64,000 bases of DNA. Source: a virus. Location of the stretch: positions 18,630 to 82,629 of IMG/VR virus record IMGVR_UViG_3300000956_000001; one strand, given 5' to 3'. Under the pieces are notes generated by a model, which worked only from the letters and a program-made list of their open reading frames with translations, did not search any database and was not told where the DNA came from. Positions 4,201 through 38,927 of this stretch are shown here, in pieces (within the stretch, counting starts at the first letter, position 1; every line of letters begins with the position of its first letter). The translations under genes and the position numbers were made by a program.

Positions 4201-4744
4201 TGCGTGCCTCCTCTCCGTCAGAATGACCCTCGTAGTACTCGTCCAGGTTGGCTTCGAGCTTCTCCAACTCTACAGGGGAAAGGGTAGATTCTCCATCCAG
4301 TCCCTGCCGGTACCCGAGATCATAGGAGACGTGACGATCACTGAAGATGCCGTCGACGTACGCTGTCTTGGGATCTTCGGCGAGCAGCGTTTCGTAATCC
4401 GGCTGGTCGATCGCAAGACCAGCGCGCATCTTCGAGATGCAATCCCGACACGCCAGGCGTCCACTACGTGACCGCAGGACAGCGCTATCCTTTTTCTTCC
4501 CATGCACCCACGAAGTAATTTCCTCGTGCGTGTCGGGATCGCTTGGATCGACACGGCGCTGACAAAAGCAGCACTGGTGCCGTGTCGTAAGATCAGGTTC
4601 CTCTTGTGTAACAGCGTTTTCTTCATGTGCCTCGTCTCCGGAGGGAGGATCAAACAAGGCTTCCTGGCAAGTTTCCAGTACCTGATGGTATCCAGTACCG
4701 ATGTCAATCGTGGGCGAGTCCGTCGGTCCAGTGGACGGTTCCAT
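4157..4744 (-). CDS. hypothetical protein (CxxC...CxxC)
   Basis: 195-aa ORF in the operon frame. Confidence 0.65.
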   Translation of the reverse strand: MEPSTGPTDSPTIDIGTGYHQVLETCQEALFDPPSGDEAHEENAVTQEEPDLTTRHQCCFCQRRVDPSDPDTHEEITSWVHGKKKDSAVLRSRSGRLACRDCISKMRAGLAIDQPDYETLLAEDPKTAYVDGIFSDRHVSYDLGYRQGLDGESTLSPVELEKLEANLDEYYEGHSDGEEARIAKDRLGTPLSEQD

Positions 4745-4889
4745 CAGCGTCTACTCTCATCCCAGGTCCGATTACTGCTTCAGTGAATGGATCGCGCACC
4801 TGCTGGAGGACAGGCTCGCCGGACGGTGCGTCGGGATCGAAGAACTGACTTACGTCAAAATCCCTTTGTTCGGGCGTCAGCTCGGCCAC
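4704..4889 (-). CDS. hypothetical protein
   Basis: 61 aa; stop/start overlap with upstream gene. Confidence 0.55.
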   Translation of the reverse strand: MAELTPEQRDFDVSQFFDPDAPSGEPVLQQVRDPFTEAVIGPGMRVDADGTVHWTDGLAHD

Positions 4890-5251
4890 TAGATGCCGTG
4901 CATCGAGGTCTCGTGCGCCGTGCTACCACAGGTCAGGCACGCCTTGTGCTTGAGTTGCAGGTAGACCGACAGCTGGCCCGACAGGTAGTGCGGAAACACT
5001 GTGTCAGCTTGCGTTGCAAGATGCTGCATGAGCGTGAACAGCGTGTACGTGTGTTCAGCGTTCATCTCTCTCATCATGCGGTCGATCGAGGCGCGCAACT
5101 CTTGCGCCTGTGCATGCGCGCGATCGTGGGCTTCTTGCTGAGCCTTGATGAATGCAGCTGGTCCCACGATTACCATTTCTCCGTCACTGTGCGTCTCGAT
5201 GTCTTGATCATTCTCTTCGTTTTCATCTGGAACGTCGGCATCTTCGCTCAT
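4889..5251 (-). CDS. hypothetical protein
   Basis: 120 aa, AGGA RBS, acidic N-terminus, C-terminal CxxC. Confidence 0.7.
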   Translation of the reverse strand: MSEDADVPDENEENDQDIETHSDGEMVIVGPAAFIKAQQEAHDRAHAQAQELRASIDRMMREMNAEHTYTLFTLMQHLATQADTVFPHYLSGQLSVYLQLKHKACLTCGSTAHETSMHGI

Positions 5252-25752: not shown

Positions 25753-25844
25753 CTGTGACCCTTCCGATCGAGATAGATGACAACGCCAGCACCAGCCAGG
25801 GCAACGATAACGCTACCAATGCAGATGTACTGCCAGGTGTACAT
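25749..25844 (-). CDS. small membrane peptide (31 aa)
   Basis: MYTWQYICIGSVIVALAGAGVVIYLDRKGHR; overlaps on both sides. Confidence 0.55.
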   Translation of the reverse strand: MYTWQYICIGSVIVALAGAGVVIYLDRKGHR

Positions 25845-26305
25845 CAGGCGTCTGCCTTAAGTCCATCCCTGCGACGACGCGCGTTGACGATGGCAGCGGC
25901 ATTCTCACGCTCACGCTCGACCAGGCGGGCACGCTCTGCCTTGTTGTGCATGCGTCGCGTCTCGTTGCGCCGGTCACGCTTCGCTCGAAGTTCGGCCTTC
26001 GCCGACTCCAGGCCGCTGGGGTGCGCGGCCAGACGCTTGATACTCACGCCCAGGAAGGACTTGCCGGAGGGCTTACCTTTGCCGGTCAGCTTGTTGCCGT
26101 CGGCGCTGTACCGGCGAGTCGTCGTCGTGTTGACCTTCTCCAGGACGAAGATCTTCTCGCTGTCCTTGTTGCTCGGGTCACGTGGCAGCCAGATACCACG
26201 GGGGTCCTGGATGACGGCCATTTCCTGCTTGAACGCCTTGCCATTACGACGCTTGGAGTTCCGCGCGCCCCGCTCTTTCTTGGGCTTCTGCTGCGCACTC
26301 GCCAT
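25844..26305 (-). CDS. highly basic hypothetical protein
   Basis: GGGAGGTG RBS before MASAQQK; strong codon bias. Confidence 0.7.
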   Translation of the reverse strand: MASAQQKPKKERGARNSKRRNGKAFKQEMAVIQDPRGIWLPRDPSNKDSEKIFVLEKVNTTTTRRYSADGNKLTGKGKPSGKSFLGVSIKRLAAHPSGLESAKAELRAKRDRRNETRRMHNKAERARLVERERENAAAIVNARRRRDGLKADA

Positions 26306-26347
26306 GACGAGTCGCACCTCCCTCTCTTGTCTGCTCTTGACCGCTTG

Positions 26348-26464
26348 CTAGTTGGGTCGACCAACCAGGACGCCTGCCAGAAAGATACATATGGCCAGAC
26401 ATACTGAACCTGATCCAATCAGGTACCAGCATACCATCTCGTTGTTACCGAGGGCGTCGAGCAT
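26348..26464 (-). CDS. small membrane peptide (38 aa)
   Basis: MLDALGNNEMVCWYLIGSGSVCLAICIFLAGVLVGRPN. Confidence 0.45.
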   Translation of the reverse strand: MLDALGNNEMVCWYLIGSGSVCLAICIFLAGVLVGRPN

Positions 26465-26522
26465 CTTGTTCACTGTTTAGTTGGCCTTCCCACCGCTTGC
26501 GTCTGTAGCTGAGCTGGCTACG

Positions 26523-26646
26523 TACCGTCGCGAGGAGTCGAACCTCACCTCCTGGTCGCACTCGCCTACCCCGAACTTATAGGCGAGCGACTGCACCCTG
26601 CTAACGCTGACAGGGCGACCAGTGTTTTGCTACTAAACTAGACGGC
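26523..26646 (-). ncRNA. tRNA-like RNA with expanded anticodon domain
   Basis: Acceptor GCCGTC/GACGGT, U8A9, D-arm GTTT-AGTAGCA-AAAC, T-arm TGAGG-TTCGACT-CCTCG; the anticodon stem CTGGTCGC/GCGACCAG encloses two hairpins instead of a 7-nt loop. Confidence 0.65.
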
Positions 26647-26679
26647 TACCCTGGGTTTCGCGTCGCCGATCAGGACGCG

Positions 26680-26787
26680 CTACACCCAGATAGGAATGAG
26701 TGTGACGGACAGATTGACGGCGAGCCAGATGATTATGGCTGTGTCAACCTTGATCCGAGTTGCCGTGCTGATTTGCCAGTTTTTCAT
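26680..26787 (-). CDS. small membrane peptide (35 aa)
   Basis: MKNWQISTATRIKVDTAIIIWLAVNLSVTLIPIWV. Confidence 0.45.
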   Translation of the reverse strand: MKNWQISTATRIKVDTAIIIWLAVNLSVTLIPIWV

Positions 26788-26836
26788 GACGATCCTGACT
26801 AGAACGCCTGAACAGAGTATTTTTTCGGATACAGAC

Positions 26837-26876
26837 AAGCCCTGGCACTCGCTTGGGAGACGTTGTGCCAGGGCTT
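26837..26876 (-). terminator. terminator-like hairpin at the 3' end of the structured region
   Basis: 12-bp stem AAGCCCTGGCAC/GTGCCAGGGCTT. Confidence 0.65.
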
Positions 26877-26879
26877 ACC

Positions 26880-28049
26880 CTCGTGCCGCTACATGTGCCT
26901 GACGGACTGTTACGCTTCACAGGCTTCCACTCAGGCTAGCCATAGAGGCCGTGCCGACTCGTACGGCGACCGGTTCCCCTTGCTGCTTGTGGTGCTCCCT
27001 TGGTTGTAACCCGACTTGGATGCGTACCTCGGGATTGCGCCTCCACCAGTCCGTCAGGACTTGTCTTGCCACATAGCCAATACCCCGCAGTGGGCATTGA
27101 TGGGCTGACCAATCAGAGTCAGAGGTTTGATCAACACACTGACTAAACGTGACTGGTCCGCAGGTGTGTCTACTTGCTAGCTCGCCAGGGTGACGCCAGT
27201 CAAGGCGCCGCTTTGCGCAGGTAGCCGCCAACTGGTCAGCCCGAGGGTTGCATCACGCTGGTGTAATGCGCTGACACTTCAACCTAAACAGGCCCTACCC
27301 GTCTGCAATAGTCGGTGCACGCCTGCCGTTTGTCGCTGGCCCGTTCGGGGTCCAGCCCAGGTGGTCTGCCCATTTCCCAGTTTTTTCGTTGGCCCTGACT
27401 AAGGCCGGTTCATCCTTCCTGTTCTCGGACGTTTCCGTCTCCGAATACAGGGGTCCAACCAGACGCCTTGATCAGGGCCGTACGCGTGATGCAACCTTCG
27501 CGCTAACCAGGTGCTCGTCTACCGGCTAACCGTTCCGTTGTGCGATGCGTGATGGTGCCTGTAGCCCGCTAGGATCGACGCTGACGACCGTTTGTGGCGG
27601 TTGCTAGGGTGGGTAACCCCCGTGCGGTGTAACGCGCTACGGGCGATCCTAGCGGGCTTTGTGCAGTGTTACTGTGCGGACTCGACCAGTCACGTTTGGT
27701 AACCTCACGTGACAGAGGTAAGCGCGGCAGGATTCCGGCCTGTCGTTCTCAGGACTGCTGGACTCCGGGGGTCGCAATGACCCATACTCCGGTTTTCCCA
27801 GGCGGAACCCTGCCGCTGGTTGGACCCATCGTGAGTCAGTCACGTAGCGTTGCGTCGAGTGCGTGCGGGACCTAACCGATGATAGCGCGGGAGCTATGTC
27901 GATCAGTACGGACGCACTGGGAGGCGCGGCTTGATGGCTGGCGTTGATGTGTCCGCTGACGGGACATCGGCTGGGAAAGGTGGGTAACCCTGACCGATGT
28001 ACCGCCAGCGCACACATCACACTGTGTTGTTAGGCAGCGTGATGGTGCC
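26880..28049. ncRNA. candidate large structured non-coding RNA(s)
   Basis: No credible ORF. Many long perfect helices: 26898-909/27047-058, 27102-111/27233-242, 27246-258/27484-496, 27391-398/27472-479, 27563-577/27644-658, 27724-731/27809-816. Confidence 0.65.
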
Positions 28050-28086
28050 CCTGGACGCCTGATCCTGCATGGGCCAGGCGTCCAGG
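28050..28086. terminator. terminator-like hairpin
   Basis: 12-bp stem CCTGGACGCCTG/CAGGCGTCCAGG downstream of the 371-aa gene; the T-rich tail is on the + side. Confidence 0.65.
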
Positions 28087-28105
28087 TTTGTTGCCGTGGT
28101 GCGGA

Positions 28106-29221
28106 CTAGGCGACCTTGCGAGCGCCGCCCACGCCGCCATCCTGGGCGGGCACGATGCCTTCCAGGTTGAACTTGGGGCTGGACAGGGCGGCCGTGATGG
28201 CACCCGAGCTGGCGTTGCCGTCCGGGTACTCTTCCGTGCGAGTCTTCGCAATCTGGCCCGTCTTCAAGAAGGTGCCGACCGGCACGCTCGCGAAGACCTC
28301 CTGGATGTGCGACTTCACGCTGCGCTTCGGACCCGTGTAGGCGTCACGCGTACCCGTGCTGGTGGCGGTACCGGCTGCCTTCGGCGCACGAACCTTCGCG
28401 ACGTTGCCGCCACGACCGTGCGCGATCTTGGCCGCGTTCTTCACGACGACGTGGACCTCGGGCGCCTTCGGCTCGCGGGCCGCGTACGCCTCGTCCGTCT
28501 CGTCGGTCTTCTTGCCCTCGGTCGCCCAGGAGTTGTGGTCGACCTCGTACGCCTGCCACGCCTTGACCTCGGGGGCCAGCGACTTCGACAGCTCCTGGAC
28601 CTTCGCGGTCCAGTCGGGGCTCACGCCCTCGCCCGGGGTCAGCATGGAAACCGCCAGGTAGAACGCGGAGACCTTCTCGACGTGCGCCTGCGTCGGATCG
28701 ACCGGAGGCTTGACGACCTGCTCGCGCTGGGCGGTTGTGGTCTTGACCTCGGCACCGAGATCCATGTAGACCTTCGCCTTGGAGGCGTTCAGCTCCTTGG
28801 TGAGCGAGGTCTTCATCCCGGTTTCGAGGAAGTCGCGGGCCTTCTTCTTCAAGCCCGGGGTCGGCAGGGCCGCGTAGGCCAGCTTGACCGGTGCGACGTT
28901 CACCGTGGGGACGTCGCCGGTCGTCTGGTCGCGCGCCTCGACGGCCTCGTTGACCTTCGCCTCGAACTCGGCGAACAGCTTCGCGTGCTCCGCCTCGGTG
29001 GCAGCCTGCTCGGCGGCCAGCTCCTCGGGGGTCTTCGTCGGGCCGGTCGCGGTGTTGGCGTCCGGCGTCTCGGGGGCCTGCGGGGTTTCCAGGTTTTCGA
29101 CCGGAGTCGCAACCTGCTCGGGCTGCGACTCGGTGGCCATGCCCGGAAGGCTGGACATCTGCTCGGTGGGCTGCGTGACCTCTTCGGCCGAAGCCGTGGT
29201 CACGTCATCCTGGTCACGCAT
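28106..29221 (-). CDS. highly expressed protein with C-terminal winged-helix-like domain
   Basis: Extreme GC3 bias, GAGGAG RBS, two consensus promoters upstream; C-terminal SVKSHIQEVF...TGQIAK..TEEYPD...SSGAITAAL. Confidence 0.8.
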   Translation of the reverse strand: MRDQDDVTTASAEEVTQPTEQMSSLPGMATESQPEQVATPVENLETPQAPETPDANTATGPTKTPEELAAEQAATEAEHAKLFAEFEAKVNEAVEARDQTTGDVPTVNVAPVKLAYAALPTPGLKKKARDFLETGMKTSLTKELNASKAKVYMDLGAEVKTTTAQREQVVKPPVDPTQAHVEKVSAFYLAVSMLTPGEGVSPDWTAKVQELSKSLAPEVKAWQAYEVDHNSWATEGKKTDETDEAYAAREPKAPEVHVVVKNAAKIAHGRGGNVAKVRAPKAAGTATSTGTRDAYTGPKRSVKSHIQEVFASVPVGTFLKTGQIAKTRTEEYPDGNASSGAITAALSSPKFNLEGIVPAQDGGVGGARKVA

Positions 29222-29379
29222 GATGACTCCTCGTCGATGTGATGTGGTGTGCGTCGTTTGAAACTGTAGTGCATCGGGTCTGTTCCGTCAACCCCCGTGG
29301 CAGGGATTGTGGATCCGATCTAGCAGGCCGACGGTATGGCTCCCCGTTATCGGCTCGCTGTTCCCGTCCCGATGCATTC

Positions 29380-29408
29380 AGTCTAGCACATCGTTTCGGG
29401 TAGTGCAA
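29380..29408 (-). promoter_or_regulatory. strong sigma70/HrdB-type promoter
   Basis: TTGCAC-17-TAGACT with extended TG. Confidence 0.7.
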
Positions 29409-29459
29409 CTGGCGTGTTGTGCAATTTCAGGGTTTTTCATGGCTCCCCTACTAGGCCGA

Positions 29460-29488
29460 AGTCTAGCACACCATGCGATGCTAGTCAA
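29460..29488 (-). promoter_or_regulatory. strong sigma70/HrdB-type promoter
   Basis: TTGACT-17-TAGACT with extended TG. Confidence 0.72.
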
Positions 29489-29681
29489 CTGGGCCGTTGT
29501 GCTGTGTTGCTGTGTGCATGCGCCAGGTAACGCTGCCCGTAGGCGAGCGTGCTGGGTCATGCTGCGCACCGTAAACAGGGATCGAACCTGCCTGCTGGGT
29601 ACCAGCCAGCGCCCCACCAGGGGTCACGATGTCACCTGAACGGACGGATAGGCGTCCAGATGAAGGTCTGACAGTGAAGGT

Positions 29682-30020
29682 CTAGCCGTACAACCCGTCA
29701 CGATTGTTGGGCCAATTGGGGCTCATGACTGCGGCCATGGCATCACGACCTGCCTGCTCGGCAGCGGGTGACATGCGAGGAGGCTCGTTGATGGCTTCGA
29801 TGTCGGTCTTGTTCATGTCGCGAATCACCCAGGGCCAGTTGCCGTGGGCGAGTCCGTCTGCAATCGCACGGGCCAGGTAGATCGCCTGCGTTCGCAGAGA
29901 CATGCCGTCGGCAGCCATCCGGTTGACCTGCTCGGCGCAGTACGCCTGGTCACTGCCCTTCGGCGCGTACGATTGCAGAATCGTCAGCAACTCGTACATA
30001 CGATCGTGATCTGTCTTCAT
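29682..30020 (-). CDS. hypothetical protein
   Basis: AAAGGTGGG RBS before MKTDHD. Confidence 0.7.
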   Translation of the reverse strand: MKTDHDRMYELLTILQSYAPKGSDQAYCAEQVNRMAADGMSLRTQAIYLARAIADGLAHGNWPWVIRDMNKTDIEAINEPPRMSPAAEQAGRDAMAAVMSPNWPNNRDGLYG

Positions 30021-30067
30021 GCCCACCTTTCCCGTTAGACGCGGTGCTGATCGGCTGTGCTACCGCA

Positions 30068-30096
30068 ACACTAGCAGGTGTTTCCCGTTTTGGCAA
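30068..30096 (-). promoter_or_regulatory. sigma70-type promoter
   Basis: TTGCCA-17-TAGTGT. Confidence 0.6.
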
Positions 30097-30164
30097 CTCC
30101 CCGGATATTGCGTACCCGGCTCCTCGTTACCTGCGTAACGCACCCGCCTGTGTGGCGTGCGTCT

Positions 30165-30193
30165 AGTATGGCATCAGGTGGACGCGTTGTCAA
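30165..30193 (-). promoter_or_regulatory. sigma70-type promoter
   Basis: TTGACA-17-CATACT. Confidence 0.55.
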
Positions 30194-30416
30194 CGTGTCC
30201 TAGTGGATAGATTGCCCGTTGGCACATATGGCATCTGACCTGCTGTTATGCTAGACCAGGCGCCGGTAATGTCCGAATTGCCAGATTTTACCGTCTTGCC
30301 CGACTAAGAGGGCTTTGCGTAGTGAACGCCACCTTTGAGTGAGAGTGCCTCACTTGTGACGACATGCACGTAGATGCCCTGTGCAGGTGCAATTGCCTCT
30401 TTGCAGTGTATACAAG

Positions 30417-31175: not shown

Positions 31176-31306
31176 AACCCACCTTCCCAGACTTTCGGGG
31201 TAGACGAGACATATGCCCCCATAAGGTACAACTGTGATGTTAATCTGGAATCGTCATAGATGCACCTGATGCGCGCATTCCGGAGGTTACAGACTAAACG
31301 GACATA

Positions 31307-31396
31307 CTACTTAGATGCGTAGTAACCAGTCACGATGACTGCAAATACGACCCAAGCGACGATGAAGCCAAACCAGAACTTCTGGCCATTTGTCAT
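31307..31396 (-). CDS. small membrane peptide (cassette B)
   Basis: MTNGQKFWFGFIVAWVVFAVIVTGYYASK. Confidence 0.55.
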   Translation of the reverse strand: MTNGQKFWFGFIVAWVVFAVIVTGYYASK

Positions 31397-31470
31397 CTTG
31401 TCACCACAAACAACACGAAGGCCGCCCATAGTACCATCAGTACAAAGGCGGCAAAAAGAAGCTTAATCAC
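31393..31470 (-). CDS. small membrane peptide (cassette B)
   Basis: MIKLLFAAFVLMVLWAAFVLFVVTR; GAGGAGG RBS. Confidence 0.55.
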   Translation of the reverse strand: MIKLLFAAFVLMVLWAAFVLFVVTR

Positions 31471-32013
31471 TCATTCCTCCTCAAAACGGACAACCTTCGC
31501 GCCGCCGTCATCTGTCTCCATTACCGTAGGAAGCAACAGATGGCCACGAACCGTAATGCTCTGGTCATCCTTGCCCTTGTTGCGCAACTGCCACTTTTTG
31601 TTAGCAACGCGACAAGAAGGGCACCTGCACCCATACATGGAGTAAGACAGGTAATTGCCGTGACTCGTCCAACTCGGTTCGAAACGGATAAACCAGTCCC
31701 AGCACCAGGTTTCGATGCATTTCGGGCAGATACTCTGGTAATCCGCATCGGCGTCATGAGCACACGTAGTGCACACATCTGTCGAGACGATGACATTACG
31801 CCCGTAAGGCGCGATAATGCGCCTTCTGGGCGCATTCACCGAAGGGGGACGAACGTCCTCATTCAGTGCAATGTGCACGATCTGCCCAACTTGGACATTA
31901 CGCCAGTCAATCTGGCGATTCACTCCGCCGATGACAAACTGGTCGTACTCGCCCTTCACGTCAGATTTCGGGGCAATCGTCTGGTATTGAACAGATGACG
32001 ATCCTTTTCCCAT
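31471..32013 (-). CDS. zinc-binding hypothetical protein (cassette B)
   Basis: CTTC..CPKC and HG..SY..YGCRCPSCR motifs. Confidence 0.75.
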   Translation of the reverse strand: MGKGSSSVQYQTIAPKSDVKGEYDQFVIGGVNRQIDWRNVQVGQIVHIALNEDVRPPSVNAPRRRIIAPYGRNVIVSTDVCTTCAHDADADYQSICPKCIETWCWDWFIRFEPSWTSHGNYLSYSMYGCRCPSCRVANKKWQLRNKGKDDQSITVRGHLLLPTVMETDDGGAKVVRFEEE

Positions 32014-32124
32014 TTTACACCTTTACCCTTTATCAGGCATCAGGTGCATTTATGACGATTCCAGATTATTAGTGCCAACTACACTGAACCCACTATTAGG
32101 GGCAGAACGGACATCGCAGACATG

Positions 32125-32643
32125 TCAGTCTTTCGTGTCGTACCAGACATGACCGTGCTCATCTACGTGAGCTGGCTCATCCAGGACATGCTGTGCATCA
32201 GCGTTGCATTGCGTCTCATATGGTGACATTGCACCACACAGTGACGTTTGGGGCGCTTCGACACATTTGGACACGGGAGTCATGCGGTAGCTTACGTGCA
32301 TCAATACGAGGATTTCGCACGCATTGCGCAACTGCCGCAGAAGGGGCAACTGTTCCGAAACGTAAAACCGTCGCAGAGTGTCATCATCGTCCTCATTCAT
32401 GCGATACGACACATAGTCGACACCGCTCTCATTTGTGACGATTCGGACATACCCGACGATGTGCTCCATCTGGTTTTGGTCCGACTCGTGCCAGATGCAC
32501 GTATCAGACCAAACGCCCGCCCATGGGCCCTCTTGTACGGTTACGATCGGCTTTGCCCAGATTGCACCGTAACGCGTCATTTGACGGACTGCGGTATCTT
32601 TGTCGTCAATGACCCTGTTGTGCGAGTTGTGCGAGTTGTCCAT
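32125..32643 (-). CDS. hypothetical protein (cassette C)
   Basis: AAAGGTGGAG RBS; C-terminal C..C...H...H...W. Confidence 0.7.
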   Translation of the reverse strand: MDNSHNSHNRVIDDKDTAVRQMTRYGAIWAKPIVTVQEGPWAGVWSDTCIWHESDQNQMEHIVGYVRIVTNESGVDYVSYRMNEDDDDTLRRFYVSEQLPLLRQLRNACEILVLMHVSYRMTPVSKCVEAPQTSLCGAMSPYETQCNADAQHVLDEPAHVDEHGHVWYDTKD

Positions 32644-32705
32644 CTCTCCACCTTTTTCAGGTTTTAGCACTGGATGCCCTACTAAGGGACGAGACGCGCG
32701 GTTGC

Positions 32706-32966
32706 CTACGGTTGTACCTTTCGTCCGCCCTGTGGCGATTTGTCGTCGTCTGCTACCTTGTGTCCGTATTGGATCACAAAGTCGTAGATGTCCGATTTAA
32801 TCAGCGTGCGGCTAAGCAGTAGGTGCGCCAGAATTGCACCTCTTCCGGGCCTTTTGTCCTGATCAGGGTATTCTGGGGTGATTGCGTTACAAATCTGCGC
32901 AACCGTCATGAAGTGCCCGTATTCGTGACCTTTGAACGCATTGAGAATGTGGTCCCGGATTGTCAT
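32706..32966 (-). CDS. small winged-helix-like protein (cassette C)
   Basis: Similar to the C-terminus of 28106-29221. Confidence 0.7.
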   Translation of the reverse strand: MTIRDHILNAFKGHEYGHFMTVAQICNAITPEYPDQDKRPGRGAILAHLLLSRTLIKSDIYDFVIQYGHKVADDDKSPQGGRKVQP

Positions 32967-33334
32967 CAGATGTGCGGTCCGTCCAGATGGTCGAAGATGT
33001 CCGATTTGAGGTAAACCGCCATCATCAGGACCGATTGGAGTAGTCCACCCACGTTCTGGCCGTGATCGTCCATTGATCCCTGTTCGGCACCACTGTCCAC
33101 GATGAGGCTAATTGCCTGCTCTGCGGCCTTTTCGTAGTTAAGGTGCATGTCTCCGGTTTGGACCAATTCGCCCAGTTCGTTCGGATCAAGAAGATTGTCC
33201 GGAAGAGGCTGATTGTCCAGATCGCGCCGAAGGACCAACAACGCACCATATGCGGTGAAAATGGCCTTTTCGATGTCATCGCGGAGAAGCTCACGTTCTG
33301 ATGCGGTAAGACGCGAGTTGCGTGTGTTTCCCAT
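32966..33334 (-). CDS. hypothetical protein (cassette C)
   Basis: AAGGTGGGCAAA-ATG start MGNTRN. Confidence 0.7.
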   Translation of the reverse strand: MGNTRNSRLTASERELLRDDIEKAIFTAYGALLVLRRDLDNQPLPDNLLDPNELGELVQTGDMHLNYEKAAEQAISLIVDSGAEQGSMDDHGQNVGGLLQSVLMMAVYLKSDIFDHLDGPHI

Positions 33335-33544
33335 TTTGCCCACCTTGGCGACTAAGTGTGAAATGCGCACCTCGTCCCATAGTAGGGCATCCAGTACCAT
33401 TCTTGACAGAATATGACGTTACCTTACATATTTTGACATATGCCAGTTATGTCCGATTCTGCCCCTAATGGTGGGTTCAGTGTGATTCATACGGCTTGTT
33501 AGTAACATCCCAAATCGTCTGCTATGCACCTGATGTCTGATTTG

Positions 33545-33742
33545 CTAAACAGTGACCGGTTTGCCCGTTTTCAGGTCAATCATCTCGGTTTGTCGTGTTA
33601 GAGGTGCAACTGTCCGCTTCGGGGGATTCTTCCCATTTACCCGCTGCGTGAATGTCTGACCGCATGTGTCACACATTCTGCGGATATGGGTACCTGTGCC
33701 CGGTAGGTGAGTCACCTCCCTATTGCAGTGCATGCGTACCAT
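33545..33742 (-). CDS. small zinc-ribbon-like protein (cassette D)
   Basis: C...CDTC; lies inside IR D. Confidence 0.55.
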   Translation of the reverse strand: MVRMHCNREVTHLPGTGTHIRRMCDTCGQTFTQRVNGKNPPKRTVAPLTRQTEMIDLKTGKPVTV

Positions 33743-33788
33743 TCTCGCCTACCCGTGCTAGTTGGTGCCGTTTGTCCAGTTTGTGACG

Positions 33789-33983
33789 TTACTTGGTGAT
33801 ACCTTTCGGTATCCACCGAGGTGTGGTGCAAACGTAGCATTCGCCACACTTGTACCACGTGTCCGAGTATCCGCAATCCTGGTCGAAATCCCACCATCCA
33901 GGCACTTCGCCCAGTTTGATGGACTTGTCCGTTTTGCGGTTCCTGACAACGTTTCTGATAGCATTGCGCAGATTGATACCCAT
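33789..33983 (-). CDS. small protein (cassette D)
   Basis: AAAGGTGG RBS before MGINLR; C...CGEC.VC. Confidence 0.65.
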   Translation of the reverse strand: MGINLRNAIRNVVRNRKTDKSIKLGEVPGWWDFDQDCGYSDTWYKCGECYVCTTPRWIPKGITK

Positions 33984-34401
33984 TGTACTGATTCCACCTT
34001 TTGTCCGTGTTGCCCGTTTTAAGGGGTTTGTGAACACCAGGTGCATAGCAGACGATTTGGGATGTTGCAGACTGAATCACCATTTACGTGCCAGTTGTCG
34101 CACATTATGCTGGTTTGTCCGTTAGTTCACAATCTGGATAACTAAGGACGTTATCCAGAGAATGACTAGAACTACCCAGATTGCTAGGGCTATCCCGGTG
34201 TGTGGCTTCATGTCCGTTTTGGTCCTTATGTTACCGAGTGTACAGTTTGCGACCCTTGCGCACCAGGTACACATACATACCGTTAGCCCGCTGAAAACGC
34301 AAATGCGTGACTTTGGGTCCGATGAGGTATCCACCCCAGTTGGTCCATTGGCACGTCATGCACTCATTGTCTGCGATGTCCGAAATGCTAGACATGTGCG
34401 A

Positions 34402-34842
34402 TCAGAGCGCCTTGCACACGTTCTGGGCGAACCATTCCCATGCGTCCCGTTGCCAGGCGACAGGTCCGAAGTGGTACGTCCAGTGCGGAAGGTACGGTTC
34501 GGCCATCTCTGCCACGATTCCGGTAAAGCTGTGCGCGTATGCACCGATACCGATCAGATCGCCCGGCATGTCGATAATGCCCTTGGATGCCCGATATGAG
34601 GGGTTGTATTCCGAGACGACCCAAAAGACCAGTGCGGTATTGATTGCCCGCATTGCACCTCTTGGGTCGGTTGCGTGGAAGAGCTGGAATGCCCGTCCCA
34701 TGCGACCTTCGCACAGTGCGTGATACATTGCGGCATTTTCCCGCATTGTCGCACCTGAGTGCATTTCCAGGATTACGCCTTTTGGCTGGTTCGTCCCGTT
34801 GGCACCGTTCGCGAAGGTTTCCTTGATTGTCACAGTTGCCAT
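34402..34842 (-). CDS. hypothetical protein (cassette E)
   Basis: AAAGGTGGG RBS before MATVT. Confidence 0.7.
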   Translation of the reverse strand: MATVTIKETFANGANGTNQPKGVILEMHSGATMRENAAMYHALCEGRMGRAFQLFHATDPRGAMRAINTALVFWVVSEYNPSYRASKGIIDMPGDLIGIGAYAHSFTGIVAEMAEPYLPHWTYHFGPVAWQRDAWEWFAQNVCKAL

Positions 34843-34971
34843 GATTCCCACCTTTTGTGTGTCTTGCCCGTTTTAAGGACAACTGGCACATAAAAGGTGA
34901 TTCAGTCTGCTATGGTTCAAACGCCCTACTAGGTGCCTGATGAGCTGAATGTGCTGGATGTCTGGGTTGTG

Positions 34972-35358
34972 CTAGTCCATCCAGAGTGCGAAGTTTCCGT
35001 CGATAACGCCATAAACAGCCTGGTGTGTACGGTTCTGTCCGTATTTTTCCAGTTTGTCGTATTCGAGCGTTACGACCCAGTCTGAGTCGTCACAGTGCCT
35101 TAGGCACCCATAACCGCACTTATCATCGTGAATGTGCCGTCCGTTACCATCTGTGACGTTTAGCACCCTTACGGACGTGATGTCGTAAAGGGGCCAGTTG
35201 TCACGAAAGTACTGAACGGGCCACATGTCCGAATACTCCGGATCGCACCGAAGTTCCAGACTGTACACATTGCGCTGAATGAGGTCTTTGCGGTAATGTT
35301 CCAGAATGTCCCCGAAAGGTGCATCTGGCCGCTCCGCCACCGTCCGCGTAGCCTGCAT
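34972..35358 (-). CDS. hypothetical protein (cassette F)
   Basis: 128 aa inside IR F. Confidence 0.7.
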   Translation of the reverse strand: MQATRTVAERPDAPFGDILEHYRKDLIQRNVYSLELRCDPEYSDMWPVQYFRDNWPLYDITSVRVLNVTDGNGRHIHDDKCGYGCLRHCDDSDWVVTLEYDKLEKYGQNRTHQAVYGVIDGNFALWMD

Positions 35359-35371
35359 CGGTTTGTCCGTT

Positions 35372-35788
35372 TCAGCCCGTGATGGTGTTGATGTCTTTGT
35401 TGCCCATCACGCGCACACTGCGTGCAAGGTCCGAAAGGAGCTGCTTGACCGTTGCGACCGGAAAGCCCTCATTGAACGGACTGTCCATCAATTTCCGATT
35501 GTCCGAGATGAACCATTCGTCCAACATGACCCCGTAATCCCAGAATGTCCGGTTATACACCGGGCCGCTCGAAGTGTGACCGTATGTCCGGCCGTAAGGG
35601 AACATGTAGAGAGTGTCCCTTTCGTCCGTAATGTACGTGAAGTCGCCGATCGTCACAAAAGCCCGATCGATGACAGTTTGCGAGTCACATCCCATTCCAG
35701 CCAGATTGGCCGCAATGTAGACTTCGTCCGCATAGTCACGCTTCATGGTGCTAAGTGCGCTATGCGTCGGGATGGTCGACTTGTCCAT
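35372..35788 (-). CDS. hypothetical protein (cassette F)
   Basis: AAAGGTGGGCAAA-ATG. Confidence 0.7.
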   Translation of the reverse strand: MDKSTIPTHSALSTMKRDYADEVYIAANLAGMGCDSQTVIDRAFVTIGDFTYITDERDTLYMFPYGRTYGHTSSGPVYNRTFWDYGVMLDEWFISDNRKLMDSPFNEGFPVATVKQLLSDLARSVRVMGNKDINTITG

Positions 35789-35964
35789 TTTGCCCACCTT
35801 TGATGATGTCTGATCTAGTTTGCCCGATCAGGCACCTAGTAGGGCGTTTGAACCATATAAGCCGTATGGGTAGTTTCGCGCTGAATGACCTATTAGTGGT
35901 CGAATGTCTGTATTACCTGTATTGCGTGTAATGCCAGTTTTTACCGTGATGTCCGACTAAGATG

Positions 35965-36321
35965 CTAGTCGACCCCGTTTTCCGATCCGTCGTAAACGCG
36001 CGAGATGTCCTGCATGTCCTCAATGGACTCGATGACCTGCATGCGTGCCATGTCGCGCTTGTTGGTTTTGATCCATTCCACGCAGTACTTCACGGTTTCG
36101 CCGTTGTCGACCCAGATTTCGTAAATGTCCGTTGCGAGTTGGTCTGGGTAGGCGATGGCGATTGCAGCCAAGAACGCCGCATGTGTCACCTTGTAGGCGT
36201 TTCCACCCGCAATGTCACCATCCGGGCTGAATGCCACAGATGAGTGGACCTGTCGCATAAGTTCCGCGAAGTCGGTCTTGCGCGTTTCGCCACCAATGAC
36301 CGGAATGTCCAGTTCTCGCAT
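35965..36321 (-). CDS. hypothetical protein (cassette G)
   Basis: AAGGTGGG RBS before MRELD. Confidence 0.7.
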   Translation of the reverse strand: MRELDIPVIGGETRKTDFAELMRQVHSSVAFSPDGDIAGGNAYKVTHAAFLAAIAIAYPDQLATDIYEIWVDNGETVKYCVEWIKTNKRDMARMQVIESIEDMQDISRVYDGSENGVD

Positions 36322-36570
36322 GATGCCCACCTTGTGTGTGATGTCCGAATTGCCAGTTTTAAGGCATTCGACCACTAATGGGCCATTCAGAGCGAAATGC
36401 CCCCTAACATTCCAGAATCACCCGCTTCGGCCCGTGTAGAGCCGTAATGTCTGTCCGGTCCCGAAATGAGGGGACCTAAGCACATTTGGGTGATTCTGGA
36501 TGCCTTGGGGGTAGTATGCGCTGAATGCCCTATTAGATGACGGTTGGGGTGGGTGAGTCCGTTTTGCCTG

Positions 36571-37065
36571 TTAGATGCCGTATCCGTTGTCTGTCGCGAT
36601 TGTGTCGATCAGTTCGACAAAGGTACAAAGCCCTTTTTGGTAGTTCTGGTACATCTTGCGGATTGCGTCACCGTTCGGACCGTCTTCGCCCGTTTTGCGC
36701 AACCAGAACCCAATTGCCATACGAACAGACCATTCGTACCAATAGTGCGAACTGTGCACATGGTCCGTGATGTCCGTCTGTTCCCACAATTCGTACATCT
36801 GGTCCCACTCGTTACCTTCGTCCCAGATTTCCTCGGATGAGACGTAAAGGGCCAATGCGCCCGTTTCGCACCAGATGTTGTACTGCTCCCGATCCATGAC
36901 GTTCTGGATGATTTTGCCCTCATCGCCCATATGCCAGACGGTTCGGGTGCCTTTGTCCAGAACGTAACGGAATGTCCCCAAGGGACCGTCTTGTCCGATT
37001 TGGCCCAGAATGACCAATTCCTTGACGAATGAGACGGGAGGAGTCATAAGACCCGTGTTGCCCAT
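36571..37065 (-). CDS. hypothetical protein (cassette I)
   Basis: AAAGGTGGGCAAA-ATG start MGNTG. Confidence 0.7.
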   Translation of the reverse strand: MGNTGLMTPPVSFVKELVILGQIGQDGPLGTFRYVLDKGTRTVWHMGDEGKIIQNVMDREQYNIWCETGALALYVSSEEIWDEGNEWDQMYELWEQTDITDHVHSSHYWYEWSVRMAIGFWLRKTGEDGPNGDAIRKMYQNYQKGLCTFVELIDTIATDNGYGI

Positions 37066-37216
37066 TTTGCCCACCTTTTCCCTACTAAGTGCGGTTTTGT
37101 CTAGATAAGTCCGTTTTGTACTCATCTACCCTAACCGTCACCTAATGAGGCATTCAGTGCATACCTACCGGTTCGTCATGATGTGCCCTATTAGGGCCTG
37201 GATGTCTGTTTTCGTG

Positions 37217-37606
37217 TCAGTTGTACTTTTCGTCCGTGACGTCGCAAATCAGCGGGTTCTCACCGTTCGTCCCGATTGCCCATACCTGAGCACGATACGG
37301 GTCAGTATTGGTGATTACGCGCCCGAATGTCGCATCTGACTTGTATTCGCCATACACGTGGATTTCGGTGACTTCGACCGTTTCGCACGTCTTGACCAGT
37401 TCTTCCAGTTTGTCCAAATTGACCGCTACGTACCCACATGCCCAGCATGACTGACACACCCGGATAAGTCCCATTGTGCCGGAAATGACTGGAATGCCCG
37501 CGAAGTCCGTTTTGAACTCTTCGAGGCAAAGGCCGCATTCGTCGTGGTAAGTCCGAATTCCGTCTTCCGCGTTGAAATCGACGGAAGTGACCGTAATGAC
37601 TGTCAT
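37217..37606 (-). CDS. zinc-binding hypothetical protein (cassette J)
   Basis: AAAGGTGGG RBS; CGLC...CQSC. Confidence 0.7.
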   Translation of the reverse strand: MTVITVTSVDFNAEDGIRTYHDECGLCLEEFKTDFAGIPVISGTMGLIRVCQSCWACGYVAVNLDKLEELVKTCETVEVTEIHVYGEYKSDATFGRVITNTDPYRAQVWAIGTNGENPLICDVTDEKYN

Positions 37607-38701
37607 GATAGCTGTGCCCACCTTTAGGTTGTTTTGCACTGGAATGTCGCTGATGTCCGTTTCGGTCTTTCACAAGATGGACATTCCAGGCCCTAATGGG
37701 GCACACCATGCCGAACCATCGGCAATCTATCCACTATGGACAAGTCAAACAACAATGTGACACAAGCCCCTAAAGGCGCCTAAACCGCATAATTGCAACT
37801 GATACACCCTTATATGGGGCAATTTCAGTCTAAAACGGACATTTCCCAGTTTTACCGTCTTTGCCCACTTTAGTACCGTCTACCCACCTTTGTCGCGTTT
37901 GCCCGTCTTTGGTGCCGTCTTGTCGTACTTGTCGGCTACGCGGCATCTGGGGGCCTTTGCCCGGGATGTCCGTTTCAGTGCGGTTTAGTTGTCAATCAAC
38001 CCGTGTCGCCAAGCGTGGCGCCTAGCGGCCGTGCTGTCGTGCGGGTGGTGCCCCACTAGCCTAGCACCCCCCTAGGCGCAGAGCTCGGACAAATCGGACT
38101 TATCACGATAAGAACGCCCGCCTGAAATGTCCGTTCTGGCCCACCTTGCCCCGGTATGACATCGGCCGAAAGTACGATATAGGTCTGACCGTTCGGGGGA
38201 TGGACGAACTAATGCGGCATCTCGGCTACGCCCGCCCATATCGGCCCAGAATCGGACATAAAGACGGCCGGATAAGTCACGATAAATCGTCTTAAAACGG
38301 ACAGGGACATATCACCTCAAACCGTCTCAAAACGGGCACGGACATACCGCCTGATAGCACCTCAAAACGGACGTGATGGCCCTAACCCCGGTTGACCTGC
38401 GAAAACGCCGTAGGATCGCCGTAGGGGCGCTAGAATTGGCCGATGCATACCCGTGCCCCCAACGGGCGTGTAGGCGCGTCAGCGGCGGCGCTAGGGGCCT
38501 TAAATGGCCGATTCCGCTAGCCCCCACGGGTGGGCGGGTAGGTGGGCAAACGGGGGTGTAGTAGGCCAGATGGGGCAGTGTCGTGATATATCATCTTAAA
38601 TCGGACATCTGACGATATAGCGCTGAATGGTACGAGATTGGGGGAAAGAGGGGAATGTCCGATTTATCATCTTATGTTGTAAGGGGGCGTAAGATAGGGG
38701 G

Positions 38702-38927
38702 CTATGCGCGCAAGTCCACTGTGGACAGATGGGATTCATGATCTTCTATATTCAAGATCATGAGAGCGTGACGATCTTGAATATAGAAGATCGTAAGAGT
38801 GTGACGATCTTCTATATTCAAGATCGTCTATCATCACTGATCTTAGATATTCAAGATCATGAGAGTGTGACGATCTTGAATATAGAAGATCATGAATGAG
38901 ATCTGTCCACTGTGGACTCACGCATAG
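38702..38927. repeat. palindromic array of five 20-bp sites GATCTT-N8-AAGATC at 33-bp period
   Basis: Units start at 38740, 38773, 38806, 38839 and 38872; flanked by GTCCACTGTGGAC (38714, 38905) and CTATGCG/CGCATAG. Confidence 0.92.

Follow-up and report, generated by a model that had tools for sequence, protein, structure and literature searches.

A region of a soil actinophage genome that probably encodes a new structured RNA of several domains at a site used for tRNA genes in relatives

The window analyzed here is a stretch of 64,000 nucleotides (nt) of DNA, bases 18630-82629 of the 82,629-bp (base pair) virus record IMGVR_UViG_3300000956_000001, which was found in soil metagenomes and whose large terminase is 50-54% identical to the terminases of the Gordonia phages Jumbo and GMA3 and the Rhodococcus phage ReqiDocB7. 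The region at positions 26880-28090 of this window is probably a new multi-domain structured RNA, lying where relatives of the phage carry transfer RNA (tRNA) genes. We put a probability of roughly 0.6 on the reading that it is a non-coding, multi-domain structured RNA locus of the minus strand, located in a stable-RNA slot past a gene of the phrog_6708 family, which is made early by read-through, whole or processed, and whose modules D1 and D3 bind factors. Long-range helices nest at least six domains, and the region could consist of several separable modules in series or serve as a precursor.

An earlier note, made from the letters of the window alone, had proposed the region as a candidate giant non-coding RNA (ncRNA). 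The region does behave as a structured RNA, in its folding energy, the covariation of D3, the helix geometry of D1, and the changes found in a close variant. It may be one giant RNA or several processed ones, and D3 occurs elsewhere as a separable module.

Folding energy and architecture of the region

The minimum free energy (MFE) of the whole region is -552 kcal/mol on the minus strand and -573 kcal/mol on the plus strand, compared with means of -466 and -497 kcal/mol for 30 dinucleotide shuffles per strand. The region lies 86 kcal/mol below the shuffle mean on the minus strand (z -10.1) and 75 kcal/mol below it on the plus strand (z -7.1), and five coding controls from the same genome (1,116-1,211 nt) have z-scores of +0.8, -2.2, -4.0, -3.1, and -1.6. 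The dense pairing described in the earlier note is borne out by these values, and the comparison with dinucleotide shuffles, set beforehand as a test that could refute the note, is passed far beyond the controls. The z-scores of the individual domains span -3.7 to -8.4. A local scan over 300-nt segments finds the region moderately extreme, with a z-score of about -2.8, which is modest because the folding signal of the region is long range. Of two marks of a structured RNA, low folding energy is found for the whole region and covariation is found for D3, the remainder being weakly supported by one variant.

The region contains perfect inverted repeats of 15 bp (27563-77/27644-58) and 13 bp (28050-62/28074-86) and four of 12 bp, together with imperfect ones of 17 nt at 94%, 30 nt at 87%, and 26 nt at 88%. 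The long perfect helices noted earlier are thus present, and they nest in the minus-strand ensemble, with pairing probabilities (P) of 0.88 for 27684-97/27145-58, 1.0 for 27485-27510/27232-57, and 0.90 for 27047-58/26898-909. Helix probabilities on the minus strand range from 0.88 to 1.0, spans of 161, 251-304, and 553 nt included. Read 5' to 3' on the minus strand, the order is the hairpin H0, the modules D1, D2, and D3, a 14-bp helix enclosing D4 and D5, small hairpins, a 12-bp helix, and the hairpin H-end (coordinates in Table 1). The helix 27684-27700/27142-27158 closes the 553-559-nt domain containing D4 and D5, and D5 in turn contains a branched subdomain (27258-27380) and a long hairpin with a GAAA tetraloop (27391-27479), which is the GAAA-capped minus-strand hairpin of the earlier note, with its loop at 27435-27432.

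The longest open reading frames (ORFs) within the region encode 123, 104, 70, and 69 amino acids (aa), and none of these four is matched in Pfam or PHROGs. The GC contents of the three codon positions (GC1, GC2, and GC3) are flat, at 0.55-0.65; the true genes in the surrounding arm have GC3 values of 0.73-0.91. In a relative of about 94% identity, the variant from run X10 described below, a 1-nt insertion shifts the frame of the 104-aa ORF, and the listed substitutions within this ORF fall 4, 9, and 7 times on codon positions 1, 2, and 3. These results agree with the earlier impression that the stretch has no credible ORF. The flanking genes are on the minus strand, judged by third-codon-position GC.

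The Rfam 15 cmscan search of the whole window at gathering scores (4227 models) yields no family, and at E <= 10 over 26300-28300 only microRNA and small RNA models match, on plain hairpins with E-values of 0.1-9, far below gathering. The covariance models of GOLLD (RF01998) and ROOL (RF03087), to which the region could not be matched by eye, do not match in the whole window or at E <= 10 over 26300-28300 either. Group I and group II introns, ribonuclease (RNase) P RNA, transfer-messenger RNA (tmRNA), 6S RNA, and Y RNA-like RNAs were excluded on the same grounds. ARAGORN calls neither a tRNA nor a tmRNA, whether in the window or across the entire genome, and Rfam RF00005 finds no tRNA. A blastn search of the region in distant mode against 50,697 phage records gives no match. 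D2 was considered as a decayed tRNA-Met and rejected, with no detectable similarity to the tRNA-Met of the relatives.

Modules D3 and D1 and the RNA slot in relatives

The pairwise comparison of the regions downstream of homologous genes in the relatives shows a single significant match, between the region and the uncultured relative G001 (E 5e-7), and this match is D3. Its layout consists of P1 (14 bp) and P2 (4 bp) around the P3 hairpin, followed by the P4 hairpin CCUG-AGAACGA-CAGG, with the invariant core GUCCRGCAGWCCUGAGAACGACAGGC. Two further members, in G006 and G007, were added by an exact-pattern scan of IMG/VR, and the covariance model R1, built on two members, recovers all four with 107.7 (the region), 95.8, 59.5, and 35.1 bits.

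Across the phages, P1 (10-14 bp) differs in sequence from one phage to the next, P2 is always 4 bp long and shows an exchange of U-A for C-G, and P3 has exchanged pairs, while the P4 hairpin and the joining residues are invariant. The full turnover of the P1 sequence with pairing retained is directly visible in the alignment. In this alignment 95.5% of the cells are paired, compared with 28-48% when the partner columns are slid, 13 of the 27 pairs are changed on both sides, and none of 500 shuffles matches the observed values, figures that are tempered by the alignment being model-fitted and having four rows only.

D3 sits past a tRNA-Met in the same orientation in both G001 and G006, and P1 includes G.U pairs, which on the opposite strand would turn into A.C mismatches. 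Taken together with its lone occurrence in some of the phages, this shows that D3 is an RNA of the minus strand and that it is separable as a module.

Rfam does not include the D3 motif, which is defined in this analysis. No match to D3 is found with blastn in distant mode in the 50,697 cultured phage records, and the D3 model has no real match in the phages Perlina, ReqiDocB7, TIN2, Adgers, and ASerpRocky. The core gives two matches in 185,579 species genomes, both in unrelated metagenome-assembled genomes with 25 and 16.6 bits and a poor structural fit, which we take as chance. A scan of IMG/VR for the core with a free loop returns 20 matches, comprising three known members and 17 non-members (L027-L043, mostly from sample 3300045988), 16 of which are one near-identical, apparently coding stretch and one of which (L041) is a lone chance match.

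The second conserved element is the D1 helix CGCUGGCG/CGUCAGCG, which is common to the region and to a hairpin of the uncultured relative L003, equidistant from the gene stop. On the strand of the gene (minus) it has a G.U pair in both phages, followed by a bulged G and ACA. The distal stems of the two hairpins differ in sequence, and both are paired. The search of IMG/VR with the D1 pattern gave two matches that were rejected: they lie on the other strand, where a gene starts, and do not form the D1 hairpin.

Two motifs, M1 and M2, have two copies each, and across the 82.6-kb genome both are found in the region only. The IMG/VR scan for M1 followed by M2 gives no match. Both loop motifs GGGUUACCCACC contain GGGUUACCC, a 9-nt palindrome of the form 4+1+4, and the complementarity suggests that two GGGUUACCC loops could pair mutually, within one molecule or between molecules.

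We traced the homologues of the 371-aa phrog_6708 gene that adjoins the region and inspected the DNA downstream of each. Three uncultured relatives have ORF-poor stretches of 1.2-1.4 kb past the homologous gene, with z-scores of -12.6 (L003), -8.1 (G002/L021), and -6.3 (G001/L020), and these contain 10-19-bp helices and nested long-range closures in the same style as those described here. The cultured phages ReqiDocB7 and TIN2 have gaps of 441 and 455 nt in this place (z -6.2 and -5.6), flanked by gp081 and gp080 in ReqiDocB7 and by Orf91 and Orf90 in TIN2. In the Rhodococcus phage Perlina (L047), ARAGORN predicts Asn(GTT), Met(CAT), and Ile(GAT) tRNAs at 4377-4933, which the record labels tRNA-Asx, tRNA-Met, and tRNA-Xle. 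G001 has a tRNA-Met directly past the hairpin of the gene and then D3. More distant Gordonia phages, as well as G003 and G004, have ordinary genes in the slot position.

The slot also contains tRNA-like pieces, at 26523-26646 (-) in the window, at about 4429-4527 (+) in L021, at about 4465-4600 (+) in ReqiDocB7 (L046), and about 370-420 nt past the gene stop in L020. They have the T-arm GGUUCGANUC, an acceptor-like stem, and large insertions in place of the anticodon arm, and they are called by neither ARAGORN nor Rfam. From these tRNAs, structured gaps, and tRNA-like pieces, we therefore conclude that the site past the phrog_6708 gene is the stable-RNA slot of the lineage, variable in size and greatly expanded in this phage.

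Strand, expression, and competing explanations

It is quite likely that the RNA is read from the minus strand, which is favored by D3, by D1, by a substitution test, by the larger z-score of the whole region, and by the energies of D1, D2, and D5. The ambiguity raised in the earlier note is thereby largely removed for D1, D2, D3, and D5, and it persists for D4 and the 27142-27700 domain.

The substitution test uses contigs of run X10, from a different soil sample, which are about 93-97% identical over 26430-27367, 27509-27720, and 28023-28173; with 33 listed substitutions from an incomplete list, low-depth contigs, and one relative, it lends modest support. In the minus-strand MFE structure the changes keep pairing 15 times and break it 6 times, compared with 10.6 and 10.9 for random placement, with a P of 0.013 for 6 or fewer broken pairs. 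There are two compensatory doubles on this strand (A-T to G-C, at 27079/27098 and 27587/27601), with 0.36 expected (P 0.04), and a G>A change at 27577 in D4 keeps its pairing on the minus strand only. In the plus-strand MFE structure, 9 pairs are kept and 10 are broken, which is not significant. The counts for ensemble pairs (P >= 0.5) are 15 kept and 6 broken on the minus strand and 6 and 8 on the plus strand, with P 0.02 for the doubles. The changes in the helix 27142-58/27684-700 neither clearly support nor clearly break it.

Synthesis would start early from promoter-like sites upstream of the 371-aa gene, and transcription would pass H0, which has no U-tract on the minus strand. The RNA might then stay a transcript of about 1.2 kb, or host RNases may cut it at the long stems and at the downstream tRNA-like element into stable pieces. 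A role in trans as a stable RNA, alongside phage tRNAs or in their place, with the D3 core and the D1 helix docking a host or phage factor and the GGGUUACCC loops pairing, can be put forward only tentatively. Somewhat more doubtful is the wider proposal that the region and those of L003, G001, and G002 are giant RNAs (1.2-1.4 kb) that form a new class in soil actinophages. Such RNAs would evolve fast while conserving structure, exchange modules (D1, D3, and tRNA-like), be highly expressed behind phrog_6708, self-associate via GGGUUACCC loops like GOLLD and ROOL, and act early as a tRNA-mimicking scaffold or decoy.

Several observations weigh against a minus-strand RNA locus of this kind. Outside D1 and D3, which make up about 15% of the length, nothing aligns between relatives, and the divergence from the X10 variant, about 6%, is not below that of the neighboring gene. 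D3 is found in gene-dense DNA of G006 and G007, which have neither the 371-aa gene nor a giant region, so that separable modules are favored over one obligate giant fold. Many of the helices are near-perfect and 12-19 bp long, likelier for processing or terminator stems than for the known ornate RNAs, and the inverted repeats of 27-45 nt that close gene cassettes in this genome suggest that long stems are a general habit of the phage. In the ensemble-structure test, broken pairs alone give a P of 0.12. With respect to the strand, D4 and the 27142-27700 domain fold slightly better on the plus strand in energy and z-score, the sole U-tailed terminator reading (H0) is on the plus strand, and the mismatches in five inverted repeats (I1, I2, I3, I7, and I8) split 4 to 3 between the strands. 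GNRA tetraloops occur once per strand.

The earlier note described the hairpins at both ends as terminator-like; hairpins are indeed present at 28050-86 and 26838-75, but a T-rich tail follows the right one only and on the plus strand only. Neither H0 nor H-end has the intrinsic terminator consensus on the minus strand, and H0 has it on the plus strand alone. The strongest rival explanation sees in the region a cis-acting spacer of an early polycistronic mRNA, with its stems serving as sites for RNase III or other processing, as partial terminators, and as 3'-end protectors, without a trans-acting product, and uncoupling the very highly expressed 371-aa gene from weaker downstream genes. The position fits, as the 371-aa gene on one side and a 35-aa ORF with a ribosome-binding site on the other belong to one run of genes on the same strand, and the layout of a gene followed directly by a strong hairpin, as at H0, is found likewise in L003, L021, and L020. 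Such a spacer would also suit the many long, near-perfect stems and the cassette-closing repeats of the same genome. However, 1.2 kb is far beyond the needs of insulation, and the slot contains tRNA genes, with trans-acting products, in Perlina and G001. D3, moreover, keeps 26 nt of junction and loop sequence as an invariant core and occurs without the 371-aa gene and beside tRNA-Met, which argues for an RNA functional in its own right. We regard the spacer as unlikely. If true, it would explain the handling of a very highly expressed early gene and tie the region to the inverted repeats of the cassettes.

It is improbable that the region is a decayed cluster of tRNAs or small genes, non-functional DNA in which only D3, and perhaps D1, is under selection. 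Decay would account for the tRNAs in the slot of relatives and their absence from this genome, for the tRNA-like fragments, for the lack of alignable sequence beyond D1 and D3, and for the divergence from X10. It would not yield a z-score of -10 or perfect 12-15-bp long-range helices with P of 0.9-1.0, and three other phages retain equally structured regions of similar size. The compensatory doubles at 27079/27098 and 27587/27601 lie outside D1 and D3, and D2 bears no trace of a tRNA-Met.

An element acting at the DNA level, such as a replication origin, a cruciform, or an array of protein sites with the GGGTTACCC palindromes as operators for the 371-aa protein (its putative binding target being the duplex GGGTTACCCACC), is very improbable. 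GGGTTACCC is a perfect 4+1+4 palindrome with two copies, found here only, the C-terminal part of the neighboring protein is weakly winged-helix-like, and inverted repeats read alike on both strands as DNA. On the other hand, the GC content is 0.58-0.60, not AT rich, there are no iterons, and the window has a far better origin candidate at 38.6-39.0 kb (GC 0.44, 20-25-nt palindromes, the most stable local fold). An RNA is indicated by the asymmetries of the G.U type that D1 and D3 show and by a pattern of substitutions that depends on the strand.

Equally improbable is that the plus strand, or both strands, give rise to an RNA that is antisense to the arm and ends at the hairpin 28050-28086 with its U-rich tail. 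This would fit the plus-strand terminator, the plus-strand preference of D4 and the 27142-27700 domain, and the G.U pair that the helix 27142-58/27684-700 has on the plus strand where the minus strand has a C.A mismatch, but not the orientation of D3 relative to tRNA-Met in two relatives, the A.C mismatches that its G.U pairs would become, the greater stability of D1, D2, and D5 on the minus strand, the substitution test, which backs the minus strand, or the finding of no plus-strand promoter-like site in 25800-30200.

Neighboring genes and comparison with known systems

The features of the region and its two neighbors are collected in Table 1.

Table 1. Features in and beside the region at 26880-28090, from 5' to 3' on the minus strand (E in kcal/mol; P, pairing probability)
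Feature	Position	Strand	Remarks
Upstream neighbor, 371-aa protein, phrog_6708 (unknown function)	28106-29221	-	GC3 0.91, top among ORFs tested
H0, 13-bp GC-rich hairpin 20 nt past the stop of the 371-aa gene	28050-28086	-	P 0.99; z -5.5 minus, -5.9 plus
M1a, 13-nt motif GGCACCAUCACGC directly past H0	28037-28049	-	second copy at 27547-27559, directly past D4
D1, 82-nt bulged hairpin, 28 pairs	27941-28022	-	P 0.93-1.0; E -50.9 minus vs -40.9 plus; z -8.4 vs -5.2
M2a, motif GGGUUACCCACC in the D1 loop	27979-27990	-	second copy, M2b, at 27608-27619 in the D4 multiloop
D2, 61-nt hairpin (7+8+5 bp)	27858-27918	-	P 0.96-0.99; z -4.6 minus, -2.4 plus
D3, conserved 93-nt three-way junction	27724-27816	-	covariance model and covariation, four phages
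Long-range helix, 5' arm	27684-27700	-	partner 27142-27158; 17 nt, 94% complementary; 14 pairs, mean P 0.88
D4, domain closed by a perfect 15-bp helix	27563-27658	-	P 0.99; lower energy on plus
D5, 304-nt domain closed by a 26-bp interrupted helix	27220-27523	-	30 nt, 87% complementary; P 0.91-1.0; z -7.9 minus, -6.5 plus
8-bp hairpin	27078-27099	-	P 0.91; compensatory double change in the X10 variant
3' domain, perfect 12-bp closing helix (26898-909 with 27047-58)	26898-27058	-	P 0.90
H-end, 11-12-bp hairpin closing the region	26838-26875	-	P 0.99; z -6.3; no U-tract past the stem on either strand
Downstream neighbor, tRNA-like element: T-arm with GGUUCGACUCC, acceptor-like stem	26523-26646	-	not called as tRNA

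The GC3 of the upstream gene confirms that the region adjoins the most codon-biased gene among the ORFs tested. The 371-aa protein has 41 metagenomic homologues with 29-79% identity, including P0002, P0003, and P0004 with 79%, 72%, and 58% identity. Its AlphaFold model has a mean predicted local distance difference test score (pLDDT) of 73.5 and a predicted template modeling score (pTM) of 0.33, with a helical middle part. The low confidence of the first ~62 residues of the model suggests that they are disordered. The PDB search with the model gives no significant match, and the C-terminal ~77 aa have weak winged-helix-like matches only (E about 1). Upstream of the gene lies a 460-nt gap with no credible ORF (29222-29681), which contains two sigma-70-like promoter-like sites on the minus strand, at 29291-29263 and 29488-29460. 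No promoter-like site was found within the region itself.

Between the structured region and the tRNA-like element, a 35-codon ORF is found at 26680-26788 (-), with the start MKNWQISTATRIKVD, a hydrophobic tail, and an AGGA ribosome-binding site 6 nt upstream. Judging from these sequence features, it possibly encodes a small membrane peptide.

Further along the window, at 31241-37717, there are at least seven groups of small minus-strand genes, each inside its own inverted repeat of 27-45 nt. The arms of these repeats are 452-1349 nt apart, and several are 96-100% complementary. The stretch 38588-38923 has the lowest GC content of the window (0.44 for the 300-nt segment at 38672) and stacked 20-25-nt palindromes (GATCTTCTATATTCAAGATC and relatives). 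It also holds an 85-nt inverted repeat and the most stable 300-nt fold of the genome (z -6.9 against a GC regression), and it may serve as a replication origin or a regulatory hub.

To our knowledge, few large structured phage RNAs have been described, and their functions are not known. The locus would add an actinophage example testable in cultured relatives, as ReqiDocB7, TIN2, and Perlina have smaller versions of the slot. D3 by itself is a compact motif with clear covariation and a link to tRNA-Met in two phages. The contents of the slot suggest a nursery, with tRNAs, tRNA-like RNAs, and far larger folds taking each other's place.

Like GOLLD and ROOL, which we take to be shorter than the ~1.2 kb of the region, the RNA proposed here is large, non-coding, phage borne, and multi-domain and is found at tRNA genes or a tRNA slot. 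A preprint describes loop motifs mediating multimer contacts in GOLLD and ROOL, and the self-complementary loop motifs of the region are of this kind (bioRxiv 10.1101/2024.12.08.627333). Unlike those RNAs, the region has no model match, belongs to a phage of a soil actinophage host group, has longer and more nearly perfect helices, and shows a conserved core only in two small modules.

Cluster A mycobacteriophages (L5, D29, and StarStuff) produce abundant, stable early ncRNAs from Pleft at the right end of the genome, from a region of about 500 bp that lies directly past the promoter and diverges fast between close relatives (PMC5712189). The likeness lies in an actinophage with an ORF-free region of the early leftward arm and a function that is not known (PMC5712189). 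In contrast, the region is 1.2 kb long, mid-genome, and past a protein gene, and expression is shown for the mycobacteriophage RNAs, whereas this locus is known from sequence alone. A blastn search in distant mode against the 50,697 phage records shows no similarity to the L5/D29 right-end region.

Phage tRNA clusters can also encode stable RNAs, as in the tRNA region of T4 with its species 1 and 2 RNAs. The slot resembles such clusters in having tRNAs in some relatives and tRNA-like or structured RNAs in others, probably transcribed as a precursor. It differs in that the genome has no canonical tRNA and that its non-tRNA part exceeds theirs by an order of magnitude.

RNase III processing stems are found between the early genes of T7-type phages and around rRNA. 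The region shares with them long near-perfect stems in an early polycistronic unit, and the same genome has stems enclosing cassettes. The stems of the region, however, enclose no genes, and some of its modules have conserved unpaired cores, which are unexpected for simple cleavage sites.

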